Part shown: in pieces, positions 28,302 through 60,890 of the stretch
Layout of the letters: each line of letters starts with the position of its first letter
How positions within the stretch are numbered: the stretch's first letter is position 1
Virus record (IMG/VR): IMGVR_UViG_3300020057_000027
Coordinates: 1 to 64,000 of that record
Length of the DNA stretch: 64,000 nucleotides
Reading direction: 5' to 3' (one strand)
From: a virus
The notes under the pieces: model-generated
What the model was told of the DNA's origin: nothing
Database searches by the model: none
Seen by the model: the letters and a program-made list of their open reading frames with translations, nothing else
Translations under genes and position numbers: made by a program

Positions 28302-30833
28302 ATGAGTGAAAAATTCTACACAAATTGTTCCGTCATTGGAAACACTATTCTTTATCGTGGTATAGAGAACGGTGAAAGAATAAAAGAGCGAGTGCAGTTT
28401 AAACCTAAACTGTTTCTTCCAACAAATAAACCATCAAAATATAAAACGCTTGATGGTCAAGCTTGTGATAAGATTGAATTCGGTGATATCAAAGAAGCAA
28501 GAGATTTTGTAAAACAATATTCTGATGTTGATGGATTTAAGTTCTTTGGTAATACTCGTTGGGTATATGTTTATCTTTCGGATAGATTTCCTAATGTAGT
28601 TGAGTTTGATCCAACTAAGATCGTTGTCGCAAATATAGATATTGAGGTCGCTTCAGAAAACGGTTTTGCTCCTGTAGAAAATCCAACAGAAGAGATTACT
28701 GCAATCACAATCAAAGCTCACGGAAGGTTTTATGTTTTTGGTTGTGGTATCTTTGAAACAGATAGAGAAGATGTTAAGTATATCAAGTCACGCAATGAAC
28801 CTGAGATGCTCAGAAAGTTTATTGAGTTCTGGGAAACTCTTGCTCCAGATGTAGTTACTGGTTGGAATTGTCTGCCGCTCAATAGTTTTGTTTACACTAA
28901 TAACTCAATTAAAAAACTTAAAAATCTTTATAATAAAGAAATTTTAAATATTGATAATAATGTTACAAATTTATATCCAAAAAGCACCAAAAGAATTTGG
29001 GAGATAAATTTAGCCACTGGTCAAAAAATATCCTCTTCAGGTGAACATAAATTTTTTACTTGTAAACCGAAAGTTCCATATCAGAATATCACTCAAATGT
29101 TAAAAGCCGGAATTTGGACAGAATCTAAAAATATTGACAAAGAATCATTCCTGGTTATTCCAAAACATAAAAATATAAACCAAACAACAGTAGAAGATTT
29201 AGATTTGTTTTATGTTTTAGGGATGCTATTTACCGACGGCACTAAACAGGGTAAGGCCGCCGCAATTTACAACACTAAAGATGAAATTATAAATCGCGTT
29301 GCATTATTTACACAAAAACATAAAATCGCTAACCATGCAAGCAAAAGCGGAATATCACTCAGTCATAGACCGTGTAAAAGAGTTAGAATGTGGCTAAGAG
29401 ATGACCACATTCTTAGCCAGTATATTCATTTAATTTATAACGATGACAAAAAAGAATTAAATGTTGAAGAATTGTCAAAACTATCCAAAGAAGAATTTGA
29501 GTATTTTTTATCGGGTTTAATAGACGGCGACGGTTCCGTTGGTAAAAATGGTAAAATTAGTTTTTGTAATTATAATGATCAAATATCAAACTTAAATGAA
29601 TTGTTGTTATGGAATGGAATTATATCTAGTGGATTTACAGCAAATAGACTTTATATTTCTAAAAGGTGTGAAGTCAATTTAAAACTGTCACATCCAATAA
29701 AAAAATCTCGATTGCTTTCCGCCGACATGAATTTTTTTAGAGCAAAATCCGCTCCAAATAAAATTGCCAAAATATTAGAAAACGATGATTGTTATTTGGT
29801 TAAAGTTAAATCAGTTGTAGAAACTTCTGAATATACCGAAATGATGGATATAGAAACATCAACGCACGAATTTATTGTAAGTGGCGTTAAAACTCACAAT
29901 TGCACCTTTTACGATATACCTTATATTGTTAACAGAATATCCAGAGTGTTTAGTGACAAAGAAGCAAAAAGGCTTTCTCCTTGGGGATTTTTGTCCACTA
30001 GGTCATCTAACTATAAAGGTAAACAACATCAAGTTGTAGAGATAGTTGGTATCAGTACATTAGACTATATTGAATTGTATAGAAAGTTTGGTGCTAGACA
30101 AGAGAGTGAGAAATTAAATTACGTTGCATATGCCGAGCTAGGTGAGAAAAAGATTTCTTATACTGAATTTGGTAGTTTGCACGAACTATATAAGCATGAC
30201 TATCAAAAGTTTATTGAGTATAACATCAAAGACGTTGATCTAGTTGATAAGCTTGAACAGAAGCTCCAGTTGATCAACATGAGTTTTGCAATGGCATTTG
30301 ATGCTAAGGTAAACTTTTCTGATGTGTTCACACAAACAAGAATGTGGGATGCTATCATCTTTGATTACGTTAAAAAGAAAGACTTAGTATTACCACAGGT
30401 TAAAGAGACAGCAAAAGATGAACAGTACGCTGGAGGCTATGTTAAAGAGATTACTCCTGGGATGTATGATTGGGTTTTATCATTCGATCTTAACTCTCTA
30501 TATCCTAACCTAATTGCACAGTTTAATATTTCACCTGAGATGTTAATCCAAGAACAGGTAGACACAGAAACTTTTAGAAAGAAGTCTACTGAAGAGGGTA
30601 TCAAGTATGATATATCTCCACTGCTGGATAAGAAACTTGATCTATCACATTTAAAAGATAAGAACATAACAATGGCAGCAAACGGATATGCTTTTCTAAA
30701 AGAGAAGCAAGGTTTTCTTCCAGATATATTGATGCGTATGTATGAAGATAGAAAGATGTATAAGAAGAAAATGATTGAAGCTCAAAAAGATCTTGAGCTA
30801 GTTAAAGAAGAAATGCGTAGACGTGGAATATAA
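28302..30833 (+). CDS. gp43A: Split family B DNA polymerase, N-terminal part (exonuclease, palm motif A, first fingers helix), with intein
   Basis: DIEV ExoI, TGWN|intein|C.FYD ExoII, YNI.D ExoIII, SFDLNSLYP; ends RKMYKKKMIEA...RRRGI. Confidence 0.95.
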   Translation: MSEKFYTNCSVIGNTILYRGIENGERIKERVQFKPKLFLPTNKPSKYKTLDGQACDKIEFGDIKEARDFVKQYSDVDGFKFFGNTRWVYVYLSDRFPNVVEFDPTKIVVANIDIEVASENGFAPVENPTEEITAITIKAHGRFYVFGCGIFETDREDVKYIKSRNEPEMLRKFIEFWETLAPDVVTGWNCLPLNSFVYTNNSIKKLKNLYNKEILNIDNNVTNLYPKSTKRIWEINLATGQKISSSGEHKFFTCKPKVPYQNITQMLKAGIWTESKNIDKESFLVIPKHKNINQTTVEDLDLFYVLGMLFTDGTKQGKAAAIYNTKDEIINRVALFTQKHKIANHASKSGISLSHRPCKRVRMWLRDDHILSQYIHLIYNDDKKELNVEELSKLSKEEFEYFLSGLIDGDGSVGKNGKISFCNYNDQISNLNELLLWNGIISSGFTANRLYISKRCEVNLKLSHPIKKSRLLSADMNFFRAKSAPNKIAKILENDDCYLVKVKSVVETSEYTEMMDIETSTHEFIVSGVKTHNCTFYDIPYIVNRISRVFSDKEAKRLSPWGFLSTRSSNYKGKQHQVVEIVGISTLDYIELYRKFGARQESEKLNYVAYAELGEKKISYTEFGSLHELYKHDYQKFIEYNIKDVDLVDKLEQKLQLINMSFAMAFDAKVNFSDVFTQTRMWDAIIFDYVKKKDLVLPQVKETAKDEQYAGGYVKEITPGMYDWVLSFDLNSLYPNLIAQFNISPEMLIQEQVDTETFRKKSTEEGIKYDISPLLDKKLDLSHLKDKNITMAANGYAFLKEKQGFLPDILMRMYEDRKMYKKKMIEAQKDLELVKEEMRRRGI
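28869..29900 (+). mobile_element. Intein (344 aa) in gp43 ExoII motif, with LAGLIDADG endonuclease
   Basis: Starts CLPLNS, ends KTHN|C; LGMLFTDG and LSGLIDGDG. Confidence 0.95.
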
Positions 30834-35260: not shown

Positions 35261-35603
35261 AATAAAAGAAAAATATAAAATCAAATATGATCCTAATGAT
35301 AAGGCTAGATGGTTTGTTCAGCTAACAGATCTAGCTGGAGTCTTTGCTGGCGTGATGTATGGTTATGGAGCATTTAGAATTAAAGAGCCAGAAAGTCCAG
35401 ATGGTAATTTGATGTTTAGTTTTGAACGAGATATTCTATACGTACCAGAAGGCCTGAAAGGTAAAGAGTTATCAGATGATCAAGAAAAAGAATTTACTAT
35501 ATTGCTTGGCTCAATACTATATGATATACTACAAGACAACCTCAATAAAGTTTCAGAACGAGGCGATAAGCTAGTCTTGGAGTTAGAGTCTAATGATAAA
35601 TGA
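35250..35603 (+). CDS. Conserved protein at the gp40 position (possible head assembly chaperone)
   Basis: Between uvsX and gp41 as T4 gp40; G..Y.YG and LG.IL..IL pattern. Confidence 0.45.
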   Translation: MTVEIKEKYKIKYDPNDKARWFVQLTDLAGVFAGVMYGYGAFRIKEPESPDGNLMFSFERDILYVPEGLKGKELSDDQEKEFTILLGSILYDILQDNLNKVSERGDKLVLELESNDK

Positions 35604-36951
35604 TAGAGTTGAAATATTAATCATAAAGAATTTATTCTTTAATGAACCATATACAAGAGAAGTTCTTCCTTTTATAATGCCTGAATATTTTTCTGATGAA
35701 GCTGAAAGAACGCTTGTCACAAAAATAAAAACCTTTATAACTAATTTCAATCATCTTCCTACTCGTGAAGCTATTATCATTCAGGTATCTAATGATACAA
35801 AACTATCACAACCAACAGAAGATAAAATTAGAGAGATTGTTTCTAATTTAAATAATGATGAGAAAAGTGATCCTAAATTCTTAATAGAAGAATCACAAAA
35901 GTTTTGCCAACAAAAAGCATTGGTAAATGCTGTATACAGTACAGTTGATATATTAGAAGACCCTAAGAAAGAGAAAGGTATAATTCCTAAACTACTTAGT
36001 GATGCACTTGCTGTATCCTTTGATCCGAGTGTTGGTCATAGTTATCTTGATGATGCTGATGCAAGATTTGAAACTTATCATAAAACAGAAGAGAAGTTTC
36101 CATTTGACCTATCATATTTTAATAAGATTACTAGGGGTGGTGTTCCAAGAAAGACTTTAAATGTTATTCTTGCTGGAACTGCTGTAGGTAAATCACTTGC
36201 AATGTGCCATATGGCAGGCTCATATTTAATGTCGGGCAAAGATGTTCTATACATTACACTTGAAATGGCACAAGAAAGAATAGCAGAACGTATTGATGCT
36301 AATCTATTGAACGTATCAATGCAGGATCTAGCATCATTACCTAAAGATCTTTATGATAAAAAGATTGCTGCTATTAAAAGTAAAACAGTTGGTAGATTTT
36401 TCATCAAAGAATATCCTACTGCCACAGCATCCGCAACAAACTTTAGAGCATTGTTAAATGAACTTGCATTAAAGAAATCTTTTAGACCTGATGTAATCTT
36501 TGTTGATTATCTGAACATCGCAACAAGTAGCCGACTAGGTAATAATCAAACGGTAAACTCATACACATATGTAAAGAGTATAGCAGAAGAACTTAGAGGT
36601 ATGGCAGTAGAGTTTAATGTTCCAATTTGGACTGCTACACAAACTAATCGCTGTCTAACATTAGATAGTAGCATTATAACTAAAAAAGGTACATTACCTT
36701 TAGGTGATATTAAAGTGGGAGATAGTGTGTTATCTGATGTTGGTTGGAATAATGTTTTGCGTGTGTATCCAATAGAAAAACAGAAAACATATCTTATCAA
36801 AACAAAGTCAGGTAAAACTATAAAATGTTCTGCTAGACATTTATTTCCTTCTAGCGGTGGTTTATTGTCTATTGATAGTGGTCTTAAAATCGGGGATGGT
36901 CTGCAAAACAGAGATGATAAAAAAAGTAATGAAAAATGGAATGTTTTTTGA
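35593..36951 (+). CDS. gp41: Replicative helicase N-terminal part fused to split-intein IntN
   Basis: AGTAVGKS, TLEM..ERI..RID, VDYL, TATQTNR|CLTLDS... Confidence 0.95.
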   Translation: MINDRVEILIIKNLFFNEPYTREVLPFIMPEYFSDEAERTLVTKIKTFITNFNHLPTREAIIIQVSNDTKLSQPTEDKIREIVSNLNNDEKSDPKFLIEESQKFCQQKALVNAVYSTVDILEDPKKEKGIIPKLLSDALAVSFDPSVGHSYLDDADARFETYHKTEEKFPFDLSYFNKITRGGVPRKTLNVILAGTAVGKSLAMCHMAGSYLMSGKDVLYITLEMAQERIAERIDANLLNVSMQDLASLPKDLYDKKIAAIKSKTVGRFFIKEYPTATASATNFRALLNELALKKSFRPDVIFVDYLNIATSSRLGNNQTVNSYTYVKSIAEELRGMAVEFNVPIWTATQTNRCLTLDSSIITKKGTLPLGDIKVGDSVLSDVGWNNVLRVYPIEKQKTYLIKTKSGKTIKCSARHLFPSSGGLLSIDSGLKIGDGLQNRDDKKSNEKWNVF

Positions 36952-37073
36952 AAAAATGGATTTATATGTTTGATGAAATAGTAGAAATTGTTGAAATTGG
37001 ATACGAAGACGTTGTGGATATTGAAGTGTCCGGTAATAATTTATTTTATGCCAATGACATCTTAACGCATAAT
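36652..37073 (+). mobile_element. Naturally split intein (gp41-1-like): IntN 36652..36948, IntC 36966..37073
   Basis: IntN CLTLDS...IKCSARHLFP...GLKIG; IntC ...DIEVSGNNLFYANDILTHN|S in a different reading frame. Confidence 0.92.
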
Positions 37074-37445
37074 TCAGGCTTTGTATCCACTGATATTGGA
37101 TTAGAAAACACCTCCGAGAGTTTTGGTTTACCGGCCACGGCAGATTTTATGGTTGCACTTTGGACTACAGAAGAGTTAGAAAAACTTGGACAAATAGTTG
37201 TAAAACAACTCAAAAACAGGTATAATGATGTAACAACATATAAAAAGTTTGTAGTTGGAATAGATCGATCTAAGATGAGATTATTTGATCTTGATGAAAG
37301 CGCACAAAAAGGTTTACAAGATTCTGGCACAGGCGATGACAAAGACGATGATGTTCCAGCATTTGATAAATCAAAATTTGGTAATGGGATGAAAGCAGAA
37401 AATAAAGTTTATGACAAGTCTAAATTCTCCGATGTTAATTTTTAG
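36966..37445 (+). CDS. gp41: Split-intein IntC fused to helicase C-terminal part
   Basis: After HN: SGFVSTDIGLENTSESFGLPATAD, KQLKNRY, GIDRSKMRL; ATG 36966 preceded by GGA. Confidence 0.93.
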   Translation: MFDEIVEIVEIGYEDVVDIEVSGNNLFYANDILTHNSGFVSTDIGLENTSESFGLPATADFMVALWTTEELEKLGQIVVKQLKNRYNDVTTYKKFVVGIDRSKMRLFDLDESAQKGLQDSGTGDDKDDDVPAFDKSKFGNGMKAENKVYDKSKFSDVNF

Positions 37446-37983
37446 ATAACTTCTTTGCCATATATTTGTTAATATTTAATTGTCTACACGCCTCTCTAAT
37501 ACTTACATATTCTATATTGTTTATAGTAATTGGTTTTCTATTGGGTTGTAGCATTTGATTTCCTTTACTTTTGGATGATTTTTCTTTAAAAATTGTTTTT
37601 GTTTTTTTGGTATGTTTCTTTCCATAAAAGGGATTATTAATTCCTTTTCTTTGTTTACTTAATTTATCTTTCTGTTTTTGTGTCCAGCTTCTACCACAAG
37701 TTCCATCTCCACCTTCAGTTGAATTAAATCCACATTTGAATGTGTTGTATTTTTTAATATATTCTTTTTCCTTGTTTTTTGCTTCTATTTGTGTTAAACT
37801 ATCTTCTAATATGATAAAAGAAAATGAATCCCATCCATATTTGCCTATGGCATTAGATATGTGGGTATTGATGTGTTTATATGAATGTTTGTGCCAACAT
37901 TTTCTGGCTGTAGGATCTTTACTCAATCCTATATATTTACGTCCTGAAATAATATGTTCTAAACAATAGATAGACCAATTCAT
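37435..37983 (-). CDS. Free-standing GIY-YIG homing endonuclease with NUMOD3-like motif
   Basis: IYCL...KYIG, GFN.TEGGDG, NPFYGKKH. Confidence 0.9.
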   Translation of the reverse strand: MNWSIYCLEHIISGRKYIGLSKDPTARKCWHKHSYKHINTHISNAIGKYGWDSFSFIILEDSLTQIEAKNKEKEYIKKYNTFKCGFNSTEGGDGTCGRSWTQKQKDKLSKQRKGINNPFYGKKHTKKTKTIFKEKSSKSKGNQMLQPNRKPITINNIEYVSIREACRQLNINKYMAKKLSKN

Positions 37984-54303: not shown

Positions 54304-55938
54304 ATGACTGATGAAGAACAGAAGACCAAACGACACGAAGCATTAACAAAACTAACACAGATGTCCCAAGATATGGGTTTATATGATACACCTGAAGACA
54401 GAATTGTCCGAGTCCTAGATAAAGGATTTGTTCGTCTAGTTGATAGTATGGGTAATGATAGTTCTATCGTACAAGCTGCCAGAGTTTCTTATGGAGAAGG
54501 CACTAAGAAAGTTAGTGAAGATGAAGGCCTCATTAGATATCTTCTAAGACATAGACATACTACACCAATGGAGATGGTTCAATTTAAGTTCCACGTTAAG
54601 GCGCCAATATTTGTTATTCGCCAATGGCACCGCCATAGAACTTGGTGTTTATCTGGAGATACCGAATTGTGGTATGATAGTCCTAGTTCAATCAGAGAAG
54701 GCACAAAAGGTAGAAATAAAATTACTATTGCAGATTTTTATGATAAATGGCACCACGGCGCCAAGCCTATTACTACACAAGATGGTATTATTATGAGAAT
54801 GCCATTAAAAAAATATTTAGAAAAAAGATCATTCAGGTGTTTGAATGAAGAAAATAAAACCATAGAACATACCAATATTACTGACGTATGGAAATCTGGC
54901 ATTAAACATATATTTGAAATTGAGTTAGAAAACGGATATAAAATAAAAACATCTCAAGATCATTTATTTTATACTGAAAATGGTTGGAAAAAATTAAAGG
55001 AGTTTGTTGGCATAAAAAATACAGATATTGTGTATTGGGATGATATTTCTCTTTATACTAACGGACAGTCAGTAAATTCTAGTTATTTTGAAAAAGGTAG
55101 TATTCCTTGGAATAATAATATAAAAATCCCACCAGAAGAAAAGAAAGCAAAATGTCATCGGGGTCATCACTTGGTAGGTAAACTAAGCAAAATTAAAAAA
55201 GTCTCTTATGTGGGACAGGAATATACCTATGATATCTCCGTTTCTGGTTCTTTTCATAATTTTATTGCTAATGGTTTTGTAGTCCATAATTCTTATAATG
55301 AAGAATCAGGAAGATATTCTGAAATGAAAAATGAATATTATGTTCCAGATCCCAGTAAAGTCACCTTTCAAAATCCTAATAATAAACAAGGCGGCACAGA
55401 TGATATCATAACACCTTTTAATATTAAGAATCCTGATGATTGGTGGGATTGTTTAACTCCAGAACAAATTGCTTCTACTTGGAACTGGCAGAAATATTTT
55501 GAAGACGAACAAAAATTAACTAGACATAATTATGAAAGATATTTGAATAGTGGAATGAGAAAAGAGTTAGCAAGAATTAATCTTCCTTTAGCTCAATATT
55601 CTCAGATGTATGGATGTGTAGATCTACATAATCTCTTCCACTTCTTGAAGTTGCGCCAAGATCCTCATGCACAATATGAGATTAGAGTTTATGCTGATGC
55701 GTTGCTTCAGTTAATCCAACCTATTGTTCCTGTGGCAGTTAAAGCATATGAAGATTATATTCTTAATTCTGTTACATTAACAGGTAAAGATATAGAAGCA
55801 TTGAAAGATGCACTACGTTCTGTGGATGAAAGTTTATTTTTTGGTAGTGCTATCGGCTCGGCCGCCAATACTGTTTTTTCCAATAAGAGAGAAAAAGATG
55901 AATTCCTAGCAAAAATTCAACGTCTAAAACATATATAG
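54304..55938 (+). CDS. thyX: Flavin-dependent thymidylate synthase with intein
   Basis: AARVSY, RQW.RHRTW|intein|[22 protein letters not shown]. Confidence 0.95.
54646..55290 (+). mobile_element. Intein (215 aa) in ThyX, endonuclease apparently lost
   Basis: Starts CLSGDT, block B KTSQDH, ends VVHN|S. Confidence 0.92.
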
Positions 55939-57515: not shown

Positions 57516-60149
57516 ATGCAGAATCTTCCCTCCTTGTATCAGGAATTCATCCATCTTTCACGCTATTCAAGATGGGTGCCAGAAGAAAAGCGAAGAGAGA
57601 CATGGGAAGAAACAGTAAAAAGATATTTTACATTCTTTGAAGTTCATCTTAAAGAACGCACAGGTTACGAATTAAAAAAATCTGATCGTAGCGAATTAGA
57701 AAAAGCAATTTTGGAATTAAAAGTGATGCCTTCAATGCGGTGTCTAATGACAGCAGGAGAAGCATTGAAGAGAGATGAAGCTGCCGGATATAATTGTTCA
57801 TTCATAGCAATAGACAATCCAAGATCATTTGATGAAATACTTTATATTTTAAGCTGTGGAACAGGAGTAGGTTTTTCCGTTGAAAGACAGTATGTTAGCC
57901 AACTACCTGTAATTGCTGAATCGTTCTATGGGACGGATAGCACAATAGTAGTACAAGATAGCAGAATAGGGTGGGCTAAAGCTCTTAAAGAGCTTCTAGG
58001 GTTGTTATATCAGGGTCAGATACCACAGATAGACACTAGCAAGGTAAGACCGGCAGGAGCGGTCCTAAAGACCTTTGGAGGTCGTGCTAGTGGTCCCCAG
58101 CCGCTAATAGAGCTATTTAACTTCTGTATACGAGTTTTTCGTAGTGCTAGTGGTCGTAAGTTGCAGTCTATAGAATGTCACGATATTGTATGCAAGATCG
58201 CGGAGGTTATCGTGGTGGGCGGCGTGAGACGTTCTGCCCTTATCTCATTGAGTAATCTATCAGATGATAGAATGAGAAATGCTAAATCAGGACAATGGTG
58301 GGTTGAAAATGTTCAAAGAGCTTTGGCTAATAATTCTGCTTGTTATACTGAAAAGCCTGATGTTGCTGTTTTCATGGATGAGTGGAAATCTCTTTATGAA
58401 TCTCGTAGCGGTGAGAGAGGAATATTCAATCTTGTTGCTGCGAAGAAATCAGCAGAAGCAGGAGGCAGAAGAGATCCTTTAAAAGTTGCTGGAACAAATC
58501 CGTGTGTTCCGGGGGACACAAGAATATTAACTAAAGACGGCTATGTTGAAATTGCCAAAACGGTCGGTAAAGAAGTGGAAATTTGGAATGGGCTTGAGTG
58601 GTCGGTAGTAAGGCCATTTAGCACAGGCATCAACGACTTGATGGAAATAACATTTTCAGATGGTAGTAATTTAAAATGTACTCCGTATCACAAATTTGTT
58701 TTAGATGATGGGAGAACAAAAAGCAAGATAGTCAAAAGGAAGGAAAAAAGGGTCGAAGCAAAAGATCTAAAACTTAACGACCGACTATTTAAATATAATA
58801 TGCCCGCCGTCAAGTTGTCTGATGCAATAGATCCGACAATCGATGCTTACTCGCAAGGATTTTATTCTGGTGATGGGTGTAGTGATAATACATCCTCATA
58901 TCTATATGAAACAAAATATTCATGCGAACCCCGCCTAAAAGGCAATTTTGGAAAACTTGAATCTAATAGAAAACGATGGGTGCATGGGGCGATGTTGCCA
59001 AAAACGTTTGTTCCGTTAAATTCGTCTTTGGTATATTGTCTAAATTGGTTTGCTGGTTTGTGTGATTCTGATGGTACTGTGACGAGAGATATTAACAGTT
59101 CCGGTATACAGATTTGTTCGGTCGACCTTGAGTTTCTTAAAGATACAAAATTAATGCTGTCGAGATTATCAGTAAAAGCTAAAATTGTCGATGGTAGAGA
59201 AGAAGGCACTTATACTATCGCTACAGGCACGTATGTTTGCAAAAAACAATACCGCATATTAGTTGGTAACGCCGACACGGCAAAATTAATCTCGTTGGGG
59301 TTAAAAACGGAAAGATTAGTATTTGATAAAATTAAACCACAAAGAGATGCGCGACGTTTTATTACCGTGGTTGCTGTGAAAAACTTAGACAAAAAACAAG
59401 AAACTTTTTGCTTTACGGAGCCAAAAAATAATACAGGGACCTTTGAGGGTATAGTAACAGGGCAGTGTGCCGAGATACTCTTGCGTAATCGAGGCTTTTG
59501 TAACTTATCTGAAGTAGTAGTAAGAGCAGATGACACAAAAGAAAGTTTATTAAAAAAAGTTGAGTTGGCAACAATATTAGGAACGTTTCAATCAACGCTA
59601 ACTAAGTTCCGATATCTTACTAAAGATTGGGAAAAAAATGCAGAAGAAGAAAGATTACTTGGCGTTTCTTTAACTGGCATATTAGATAATGAATTTTTAT
59701 CTACTCCAAGTCCAGAATTACAAACGTTTTTAGAAGAATTAAAAGATCACGCAATTAAAGTAAATAAAAAATGGGCCACAAAATTGGGCATTCCACAATC
59801 TGTGGCAATTACTTGCGTGAAGCCTAGTGGATGTCAAAGTTTGTCGAATAAAATTAAAACCAATTTGGGTGTTCTTTCCTTCGAGGAAATTTTGGATCTA
59901 TGTAAAGTTAAAACTACATTTGCCGACACATGGCATCCCGTAAATATAGACTTATCGGTATTTGATGAAAATAACGAATCGCAGAAGGTTACAAAACTTT
60001 TCATCAACGGAGAGGCTTTGGTGCATGAAATTGAGTTTGAAGATGGCACCACGGCAAAATTCACGTCAAACCATAAACTTTTAACAAAAGATCGTGGTTA
60101 TGTCAGAGTTGACGAATTAAAACCAGAAGATGATATAGTTTCTTTTTAA
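57516..60149 (+). CDS. nrdJ: Class II (B12-dependent) ribonucleotide reductase N-terminal part, with cis intein and split-intein IntN
   Basis: RRETW.E, PSMR, YNCSF, GGVRRSA, GTNP|intein|CAEI, FCNLSE, CVKPSG|IntN. Confidence 0.94.
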   Translation: MQNLPSLYQEFIHLSRYSRWVPEEKRRETWEETVKRYFTFFEVHLKERTGYELKKSDRSELEKAILELKVMPSMRCLMTAGEALKRDEAAGYNCSFIAIDNPRSFDEILYILSCGTGVGFSVERQYVSQLPVIAESFYGTDSTIVVQDSRIGWAKALKELLGLLYQGQIPQIDTSKVRPAGAVLKTFGGRASGPQPLIELFNFCIRVFRSASGRKLQSIECHDIVCKIAEVIVVGGVRRSALISLSNLSDDRMRNAKSGQWWVENVQRALANNSACYTEKPDVAVFMDEWKSLYESRSGERGIFNLVAAKKSAEAGGRRDPLKVAGTNPCVPGDTRILTKDGYVEIAKTVGKEVEIWNGLEWSVVRPFSTGINDLMEITFSDGSNLKCTPYHKFVLDDGRTKSKIVKRKEKRVEAKDLKLNDRLFKYNMPAVKLSDAIDPTIDAYSQGFYSGDGCSDNTSSYLYETKYSCEPRLKGNFGKLESNRKRWVHGAMLPKTFVPLNSSLVYCLNWFAGLCDSDGTVTRDINSSGIQICSVDLEFLKDTKLMLSRLSVKAKIVDGREEGTYTIATGTYVCKKQYRILVGNADTAKLISLGLKTERLVFDKIKPQRDARRFITVVAVKNLDKKQETFCFTEPKNNTGTFEGIVTGQCAEILLRNRGFCNLSEVVVRADDTKESLLKKVELATILGTFQSTLTKFRYLTKDWEKNAEEERLLGVSLTGILDNEFLSTPSPELQTFLEELKDHAIKVNKKWATKLGIPQSVAITCVKPSGCQSLSNKIKTNLGVLSFEEILDLCKVKTTFADTWHPVNIDLSVFDENNESQKVTKLFINGEALVHEIEFEDGTTAKFTSNHKLLTKDRGYVRVDELKPEDDIVSF
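58503..59465 (+). mobile_element. Intein (321 aa) ending in Gln, inserted before the RNR thiyl-radical Cys
   Basis: NP|CVPGDT ... CTPYH ... FAGLCDSDG ... VTGQ|CAE. Confidence 0.92.
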
Positions 60150-60332
60150 ATACACACCAAAAATGCAGAAAATAGAAAGTTTTGAAGAATTTTTAGAAAA
60201 AAACAAACAATTCCGTAGGGGTAGAATATGAAAATAAAATCAATAAAAATTGCTGGCATAGAATTAACGGGAGATGTTGAGGTGGCGAACACACATTCGT
60301 ATCAGTTAGAAAATGGATGCGTCTCTCATAAC
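59832..60332 (+). mobile_element. Naturally split intein in NrdJ: IntN 59832..60146, IntC 60228..60332
   Basis: KPSG|CQSL...FTSNH...ELKPEDDIVSF stop; MKIKSIK...DVEV..THSY...VSHN|TVSQL. Confidence 0.92.
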
Positions 60333-60890
60333 ACAGTTTCACAATTGGCGGACAGCGCATCTGGGATTCATGCAAGACATTCTCCATATTACATTCGCAC
60401 CGTTAGATCTGATATAAAAGATCCATTATGCAAACTGATGAAAGAAATGGGTTTTCCTAATGAGCCAGACGTAACAAAACCTGAACACACTGTTATATTT
60501 TCTTTTCCGGTTAAGGCACCCGATAATTCAATATTCAGATACGATTTAAACGCAATTCAACATTTAGAGTTGTGGTTATTTTATAAAAAATTCTGGGCCG
60601 AGCATACCGTATCAATTACCGTATCAGTAAAAGATAGCGAATGGTTTGACGTTGCCGCATATGTTTATAAACATTTTGATGACATATCTGGAATTTCATT
60701 TTTGCCATTTAGTGATCACGTTTATAAACAAGCGCCATATCAAGATTGCTCCAAAGAAGAATATCAGGCGCTCGTAAATAAAATGCCACAAAACGTAGAT
60801 TGGTCCAAACTTAAAGAATTTGAATCCATAGATAATACTACCAGTTCACAGGAATTGGCGTGCGTTGCCGGTAATTGCGAAATATTATAA
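60228..60890 (+). CDS. nrdJ: Split-intein IntC fused to NrdJ C-terminal part
   Basis: TVSQL.DSASGIH, W.EH..SIT, SGISFLP, YKQAPYQ, C-terminal ELACVAGNCEI. Confidence 0.94.
   Translation: MKIKSIKIAGIELTGDVEVANTHSYQLENGCVSHNTVSQLADSASGIHARHSPYYIRTVRSDIKDPLCKLMKEMGFPNEPDVTKPEHTVIFSFPVKAPDNSIFRYDLNAIQHLELWLFYKKFWAEHTVSITVSVKDSEWFDVAAYVYKHFDDISGISFLPFSDHVYKQAPYQDCSKEEYQALVNKMPQNVDWSKLKEFESIDNTTSSQELACVAGNCEIL

Follow-up and report, generated by a model that had tools for sequence, protein, structure and literature searches.

A probable naturally split intein in a phage class II ribonucleotide reductase, with the remnant of an endonuclease gene between its halves

The nrdJ gene is encoded in two pieces

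We analysed a 64,000-nucleotide stretch of viral DNA (the window) that comprises the first 64 kb of IMG/VR virus record IMGVR_UViG_3300020057_000027, a 164,106-bp sequence with direct terminal repeats. Our subject is the ribonucleotide reductase gene nrdJ in this window, which is divided between two open reading frames (ORFs) by the halves of a putative split intein. The record codes for a T4-type major capsid protein (Gp23, E 3e-132), and on this sequence evidence the source virus is a T4-like phage.

The ORF at 57516..60149 (877 aa) encodes a class II (B12-type) ribonucleotide reductase, NrdJ, and contains matches to the Pfam families RNR_Alpha, RNR-II_ins_dom and Ribonuc_red_lgC. The nrdJ gene has two interruptions, of which the second is considered here first. 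After the sequence CVKPSG the frame enters a 105-aa segment with Cys as its first residue, which ends at a TAA stop at 60147. The next ORF, at 60228..60890 (220 aa), opens with 35 residues ending in SHN, followed directly by TVSQL. We refer to the 105-aa and 35-aa segments as the N-terminal and C-terminal intein halves, IntN and IntC. Both ORFs lie in one frame, and the intein halves are separated by a 78-nt spacer. An earlier reading of the DNA (the original prediction) had described this layout with at least two in-frame stops between the halves. The layout is as described, and the in-frame stops number four (TAA 60147, TGA 60183, TAG 60216 and TAG 60222); the same four appear in a Pfam match read through the gap. 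The 22-aa ORF that had been reported at 60163..60231 is also present, with a TGA stop that overlaps the IntC start codon (ATGA). The features of the locus are as follows.

57516..58502, plus strand: first part of the NrdJ N-extein, ending GTNP (Pfam matches; colinear with uninterrupted NrdJ)
58503..59465, plus strand: intein 1, a contiguous 321-aa LAGLIDADG intein (Pfam LAGLIDADG_3 and Intein_splicing; boundaries from colinearity with intein-free NrdJ)
59466..59831, plus strand: second part of the NrdJ N-extein, ending CVKPSG (sequence; colinearity with uninterrupted NrdJ)
59832..60149, plus strand: IntN, 105 aa and TAA stop (coding 59832..60146), with Cys1 at 59832..59834, Thr78 at 60063..60065 and His81 at 60072..60074
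60145..60231, plus strand: relic of the 3' end of an HNH-type endonuclease gene, 28 codons and stop, in the +1 frame relative to nrdJ (tail-profile match, alignments)
60163..60231, plus strand: 22-aa mini-ORF inside the relic, from an ancestral internal Met codon downstream; its TGA overlaps the IntC ATG
60217..60222, plus strand: Shine-Dalgarno-like AGGGGT, 5 nt before the IntC ATG, encoded by Arg-Gly codons near the end of the relic
60228..60332, plus strand: IntC, 35 aa, with blocks F and G, ending His34-Asn35 at 60327..60332 (sequence; HN then Thr in relatives)
60333..60890, plus strand: NrdJ C-extein from Thr+1 (TVSQL), stop included (colinear with uninterrupted NrdJ)

The intein halves retain the splicing residues

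IntN and IntC carry the residues of a class 1 intein, in agreement with the proposal that this is a split intein of Thr+1 type. The N-terminal nucleophile Cys1 directly follows the N-extein sequence KPSG, the TxxH signature of block B is present as T78-S-N-H81 (FTSNH), and blocks F and G of IntC supply Asp16, His23 and His34-Asn35, after which the C-extein begins with Thr+1. Cys1, Gly-1 and the block B His are invariant among 21 distinct IntN sequences, and the block B Thr/Ser is conserved across the intein family. Gly-1 and KP(S/E)G occur in 26 of the 26 loci listed, and HN is followed by Thr in about 106 of the listed protein clusters that are led by an IntC. Read through as one sequence, IntN and IntC together match the Pfam family Intein_splicing (PF14890) with 42.2 bits, above the curated cut-off of 35.8.

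A contiguous member of the family resembles inteins of solved structure by sequence (the Ssp DnaB intein at E 5e-7; Npu DnaE). The AlphaFold model of a contiguous homologue (L076:709-1155; predicted local distance difference test score 73.8) shows the HINT fold, and the Foldseek matches to the PDB shown for this model are all inteins, gp41-1 and an NrdJ-1 fusion among them, except for one bacterial intein-like domain. In the window, IntN is acidic (net charge -7) and the start of IntC is Lys-rich (net +2 over the first 14 residues).

Between a related locus in which a GIY-YIG endonuclease gene is present (L073) and one in which it is absent (L086), the ratio of nonsynonymous to synonymous substitution rates (dN/dS) is 0.07 for IntN and 0.04 for IntC, indicating that the intein is under strong purifying selection with and without the endonuclease gene. 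When both inteins are removed in silico, the product is a 636-aa NrdJ, 80.5% identical to an uninterrupted homologue (L005) with which it aligns end to end. Relative to the uninterrupted NrdJ of related viral contigs there is no indel at either splice junction. These comparisons of sequence indicate that a naturally split intein very probably joins the two separately translated NrdJ pieces by splicing.

The same split occurs in other viruses

An independent assembly contains the same split, with both halves on one 17-kb contig: a 556-aa N-half (P0122) that ends in an IntN 98% identical to that of the window (2 of 105 residues differ), and a 220-aa C-half that starts from the same Met (P0002; 97% identical). 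A metagenome collection of 5.8 billion proteins contains at least 108 clusters whose members measure about 216-231 aa and have a homologous IntC at the N-terminus. A second virus (L035/L068) is broken identically, as KPEG/C...HN/T (slashes mark the intein boundaries), with an IntN that is 39% identical, an IntC region that is 59% identical and an unrelated 87-nt spacer. Most IMG/VR relatives of the C-terminal half of NrdJ have an uninterrupted KPSGTVSQL, and the intein insertion is therefore a polymorphism.

Two other accounts of the interruption were rejected. An assembly error is incompatible with the recurrence of the split in an independent assembly and with the more than 100 other clusters that begin with a homologous IntC, and a recoded genetic code fails because TAA, TGA and TAG all occur in the gap, so that no alternative code closes the frame. 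The tblastn matches that seem to cover IntC in L024 and in Rhizobium phage RHph_N3_19 are alignment over-extensions, both of these sequences having an uninterrupted KPSGT.

The relationship between the window and P0122 is mosaic, in that the N-extein is only about 85% identical (66 of 451 residues differ) compared with 98% for IntN. The switch in identity comes immediately upstream of IntN and suggests that recombination had a boundary at the split-intein cassette. Another protein, P0107 (225 aa), has an IntC-like start without the final residues, including His-Asn, and is followed at once by KPSGTVSQL; a dead chimera and an assembly artefact are both possible.

A family of inteins at KPSG/T in several states

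A degenerate DNA pattern covering the end of IntC and the junction identified 37 loci in IMG/VR and 50 metagenome loci. After removal of duplicates, 64 distinct junction regions remain, and both intein halves are visible in 44 of them, in the following states.

34 of 44 distinct loci: gap of 569-1117 nt containing an HNH or GIY-YIG endonuclease gene
5 of 44 loci: gap of 69-124 nt (the window, L086, L087, L091/L123 and L068)
4 of 44 loci: contiguous mini-intein of 140-149 aa at the same KPSG/T site (L076, L085, the L103 group and L165)
1 of 44 loci: halves overlapping by 20 nt in different frames (L118)

The long gaps contain a plus-strand ORF of 152-356 aa. When ten of these gap ORFs were tested against Pfam, five matched HNH (PF01844) and three matched SegE-like GIY-YIG (PF19835), and PHROGs assigns the gap ORFs of L157 and L073 to homing endonucleases. 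The endonuclease stop overlaps the IntC ATG as ATGA in many intact loci, which indicates that the same overlap at the end of the window mini-ORF is inherited.

The gap endonucleases have a modular appearance. HNH and GIY-YIG enzymes share a C-terminal region (L073, L079, L078 and L088 compared with L106, L077, L075 and L102), and the two types of tail, KYT...KGR and a Cys/His zinc-finger-like type, each occur with both catalytic domains. Such a pattern suggests that endonuclease families have exchanged domains at this one site. The IntN ORFs of L093, L101 and L102 have a C-terminal extension of 25-30 aa that overlaps the start of the HNH gene. In L118 (1-412), where the IntN ORF extends 20 nt beyond the IntC start in the other frame, the overlap is due to a sequencing error or else to a frameshift that split a contiguous mini-intein.

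A search of 185,579 representative prokaryote genomes with two family-specific peptide patterns, an approach of low sensitivity, found no relative, hinting weakly that the intein family is confined to phages. No deposited phage genome with this NrdJ split was found.

The spacer contains the end of a deleted endonuclease gene

Read in the mini-ORF's frame, the sequence is homologous to the C-termini of the gap endonucleases over 28 codons, from about 60145 to the TGA at 60229..60231. Six of these codons lie upstream of the mini-ORF ATG, overlapping the IntN stop. We constructed a tail profile from eight intact endonucleases, using the final 40 residues of each and excluding the window, and scored it on all stop-to-stop frames of the 64-kb window, 2,301 in number. 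A single piece, 60139..60228, matches (E 8.5e-14), and the next best has an E value of 0.92. The relic is 47-53% identical to the tails of intact endonuclease genes (alignment A3), and identities over the endonuclease tails compared range from 39 to 57%. It shares QKIESF and the ending FRRGR with L157 and KYTPKMQ with L142, and its DNA also aligns to both. Since KYTPKMQ, which includes the Met of the mini-ORF, is also found in L142, this Met is an old internal Met of the endonuclease.

The idea that an endonuclease had been deleted from the gap is thus upheld, both by this scar and by the relatives in which the same intein has an HNH or GIY-YIG gene at that position. The mini-ORF had been taken for the start of the endonuclease and has to be reassigned to the 3' end: judged by homology, it is the last 22 codons of a deleted HNH endonuclease gene. 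Looking for relatives whose endonuclease opens with the mini-ORF sequence would consequently find none. Two minus-strand ORFs (60146..60292 and 60117..60206) also overlie the gap; the plus-strand relic accounts for the spacer.

Other short-gap loci record comparable events. L086 differs from L073 (the DNA of their IntN is about 91% identical) by the absence of about 685 nt, from just past the IntN stop to the KYTKK codons, and L091 lacks about 634 nt compared with L121, so that these two sister pairs show clean deletions that leave the same tail. The short gap of L087 retains a zinc-finger-like tail of the second type, and that of L068 retains a piece of the GIY-YIG N-terminal region together with the last few codons. 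Because the short-gap loci retain different pieces, the endonuclease has probably been lost several times.

The right-hand deletion ends of the window (60145), L086 (about 5080) and L091 (about 1100) all lie near the KYT codons, no more than about 21 nt apart. Such clustering is unexpected for independent random events. Possible causes are selection for the IntC initiation region, microhomology that makes the A-rich KYTKK codons a hot spot, and shared ancestry followed by recombination.

A route to intact NrdJ, and whether the relic contributes

We consider it highly likely that nrdJ is a fractured gene that has lost its endonuclease, in which the relic makes up the spacer and trans-splicing restores NrdJ. 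Scanning the spacer revealed neither promoter-like nor terminator-like sites, and it lacks a stable RNA structure (z +0.72), so the halves are probably co-transcribed, on a single transcript. Translation would yield two polypeptides, one consisting of the N-extein, intein 1 and IntN, and the other of IntC and the C-extein, initiated from its own Shine-Dalgarno sequence. The acidic IntN would then pair with the Lys-rich start of IntC to form the HINT fold. Class 1 trans-splicing, through thioester formation at Cys1, attack by Thr+1 and cyclisation of Asn35, would join KPSG to TVSQL, and intein 1 would be excised in cis, giving the 636-aa NrdJ as end product. The unspliced enzyme is unlikely to work because the split lies inside the conserved KPSGT motif. 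A deletion of about 0.6 kb would have removed the free-standing HNH-type homing endonuclease gene except for its last 28 codons, which carry the ribosome-binding site of IntC.

The relic might instead contribute to translation. The original prediction had envisaged that the peptide keeps the two halves translationally coupled. In such a relay the mini-ORF would be translated by re-initiation, the ATGA overlap would pass ribosomes on to IntC, and the relic would have been kept because it fixes a 1:1 ratio of the halves. The geometry is suitable, with ATG 60163 sitting 13 nt past TAA 60147 and the mini-ORF TGA overlapping the IntC ATG, and the overlap of endonuclease stop and IntC ATG in intact loci would make coupling into IntC ancestral. 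In addition, all five endonuclease-less loci retain endonuclease-derived sequence up to the IntC start, with three deletion ends within about 21 nt.

The details of the relics speak against this relay. No Shine-Dalgarno motif is present upstream of the mini-ORF ATG at 60163, whereas IntC is preceded by its own (AGGGGT), and a comparable purine-rich motif is found in 34 of 40 distinct loci. The IntC motif coincides with the invariant Gly-Arg at the ends of the endonuclease tails. Among relics of the same tail type, that of L086 lacks an ATG, its only candidate start being a TTG inside IntN, and that of L091 has no start codon and is frameshifted; L068 retains only the last few endonuclease codons. 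The relic also diverges faster than the intein (dN 0.18 compared with 0.03), over 23 codons, which are too few for a firm test. We therefore regard coupling through the mini-ORF as improbable, and the peptide probably has no function of its own.

A related proposal concerns the endonuclease tail itself, namely that the last 70-100 nt before IntC have been co-opted to set how much of the IntC half is made, acting as its translation-initiation region or as a termination-reinitiation relay. The separate deletions in at least three lineages that end near the KYT codons always keep these last 70-100 nt. We rate this as unlikely, if somewhat less so than coupling through the peptide. If true, an essential split gene would have domesticated part of a selfish gene to serve as an expression element.

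Alternatives to splicing

Several observations weigh against the reading of the locus as a fractured gene with a functionless relic and trans-splicing halves. IntN alone gives E 7e-7 with Pfam Intein_splicing but reaches only 29.5 bits, below the 35.8 cut-off, and the fold prediction was made on a contiguous homologue and not on the window's own two chains. Thr+1 together with Gly-1 is an uncommon junction among characterised fast split inteins. The differences between the relic and its relatives are conservative (dN/dS about 0.16-0.2 over about 21-23 codons), and weak selection on the relic peptide is possible.

The intein halves might not splice at all and might only hold the NrdJ fragments together non-covalently, and Thr+1 is a weaker nucleophile than Cys or Ser. 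Phage Aeh1 provides a model for such an arrangement: in nrdA-a/mobE/nrdA-b the large subunit of a reductase is cut by a free-standing endonuclease gene, as in relatives of the window locus, and the fragmented enzyme works without splicing (Crona et al. 2010, PMC3045599). The tails of the two Aeh1 fragments (NrdA-a, NrdA-b) are non-splicing interaction tails. A system of this type would have tails without intein catalytic residues, whereas in the window locus every splicing residue is retained, and Cys1, TxxH, the block F Asp and His, HN and Thr+1 are all kept across the sequences examined. The dN/dS values of 0.04-0.07 for the intein halves argue in the same direction. An unspliced insertion of 140 aa would moreover disrupt the conserved KPSGT motif, and where the intein of this family is contiguous at the same site, NrdJ can arise only by splicing. 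We consider a purely non-covalent role very unlikely.

That nrdJ is simply broken, as a pseudogene or an assembly or sequencing artefact, and that the phage depends on nucleotide reduction by its host, would fit the four stops between the halves and the presence of a second intein in the same gene, but is scarcely credible given independent assemblies with the same split, more than 100 variants with intact halves, purifying selection on both inteins and exteins, and the same layout in 40 distinct loci.

Comparison with known split genes

Fractured genes, including NrdJ-1 and NrdJ-2, have been described in Global Ocean Sampling metagenomes (Dassa et al. 2009, PMC2677866). The window locus has their organization, with N-extein-IntN and IntC-C-extein as separate ORFs in order on one strand. 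The free-standing endonuclease gene expected between the halves is reduced to the 28-codon relic in the window and is present in 34 of the 44 related loci.

Like NrdJ-1 and NrdJ-2, the window intein resides in a phage class II ribonucleotide reductase, consists of halves of about 105 and 35-40 aa on one strand, and combines an acidic IntN with a basic IntC; relatives of the window locus also share with them a free-standing endonuclease gene between the halves, which the window itself lacks. The position differs. For NrdJ-1 and NrdJ-2 the insertion point is one residue beyond the site immediately N-terminal to the thiyl-radical Cys (Dassa et al. 2009, PMC2677866), with Ser+1, whereas the window intein lies 122 extein residues further downstream, at KPSG/T, and has Thr+1. 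Proteins with an NrdJ-1-type IntC (P0112, P0113, P0117 and P0119) continue with SEI(I/V)L, and they matched our query only over the shared extein (42% of the query) and not over IntC. The two inteins thus have neither insertion point nor allelic sequence in common, and the claim that this site is distinct from that of NrdJ-1 was correct.

The gp41-7 locus also has adjacent split halves without an endonuclease gene, in a different host gene and with a different intein; the published model attributes this state to loss of the free-standing gene, and endonuclease loss has been proposed as a step by which split inteins evolved (Dassa et al. 2009, PMC2677866). At the window locus this loss is documented by the 28-codon relic and by sister alleles in which the gene persists.

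Klebsiella phage KP13-7 (OP617745) has a homologous split intein at the equivalent site of a class I enzyme, IMPGE/...HN/TSSQ, with an IntC that is 43% identical over a 60-aa query and a 324-aa ORF with a candidate HNH motif between the halves. It differs from the window in that the host gene is a class Ia nrdA of a cultured jumbo phage and that the gap ORF is intact; the pieces are recorded as hypothetical proteins. The nrdA of this phage (L108; 33225-36407) is in at least three pieces, with another split intein at the thiyl-Cys site and a GIY-YIG-like gene before it.

The cyanobacterial Ssp and Npu DnaE split inteins are likewise class 1 and are split at the same position, between blocks B and F; sequence and fold matches to the DnaE intein have E values of 1e-5 to 1e-4. 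The DnaE halves are far apart and use Cys+1, whereas the window halves are 78 nt apart and use Thr+1.

Other inteins in the same phage

The first interruption of nrdJ, intein 1 (58503..59465), starts with Cys, has Gly-Gln in place of His-Asn at its end and is followed by the thiyl-radical Cys as +1 residue. It is missing from the N-half of the close relative P0122 (556 aa), so that near-identical split alleles differ in its presence.

A second split intein in the same genome interrupts a gp41-type helicase (window 35593-36951 and 36936-37445) at QTNR/C, with an IntC ending THN/S. Its halves overlap by 16 nt with no endonuclease gene between them, and immediately downstream of the split helicase the minus strand carries a GIY-YIG-like gene (37435-37983). 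Three more matches to Intein_splicing above the Pfam cut-off are found in other long ORFs (G000 28938-29900, 54838-55290 and 154607-155116), which brings the number of inteins in this phage to six or more.

Discussion

Our literature search found no description of a split intein at KPSG/T; InBase was outside this search and may catalogue a contiguous intein at this position in cellular reductases. The intein described here belongs to a new and widespread allele family. The split-intein arrangement itself is already known, and its occurrence will not surprise specialists.

For protein engineering, the family offers a large set of natural, typically split inteins, with more than 100 variants that combine Cys1 and Thr+1 with Gly-1. 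Their junction is unlike those of gp41-1, NrdJ-1, IMPDH-1 and DnaE, which makes them possible orthogonal ligation tools.

The locus also bears on annotation. Short ORFs between split-intein halves should be considered as endonuclease remnants first, before a function is proposed for them, and homologous splits remain unannotated in cultured phages too, as in Klebsiella phage KP13-7.

For the evolution of fractured genes, one intein family at one site displays several stages of gene breaking in the sense of the model of Dassa et al., from a contiguous mini-intein, through genes broken by an HNH or GIY-YIG endonuclease, to loss of the endonuclease. The losses appear to have occurred independently several times, each leaving a datable relic, so that this family should allow one to measure how fast endonucleases are lost and in what order the events took place.

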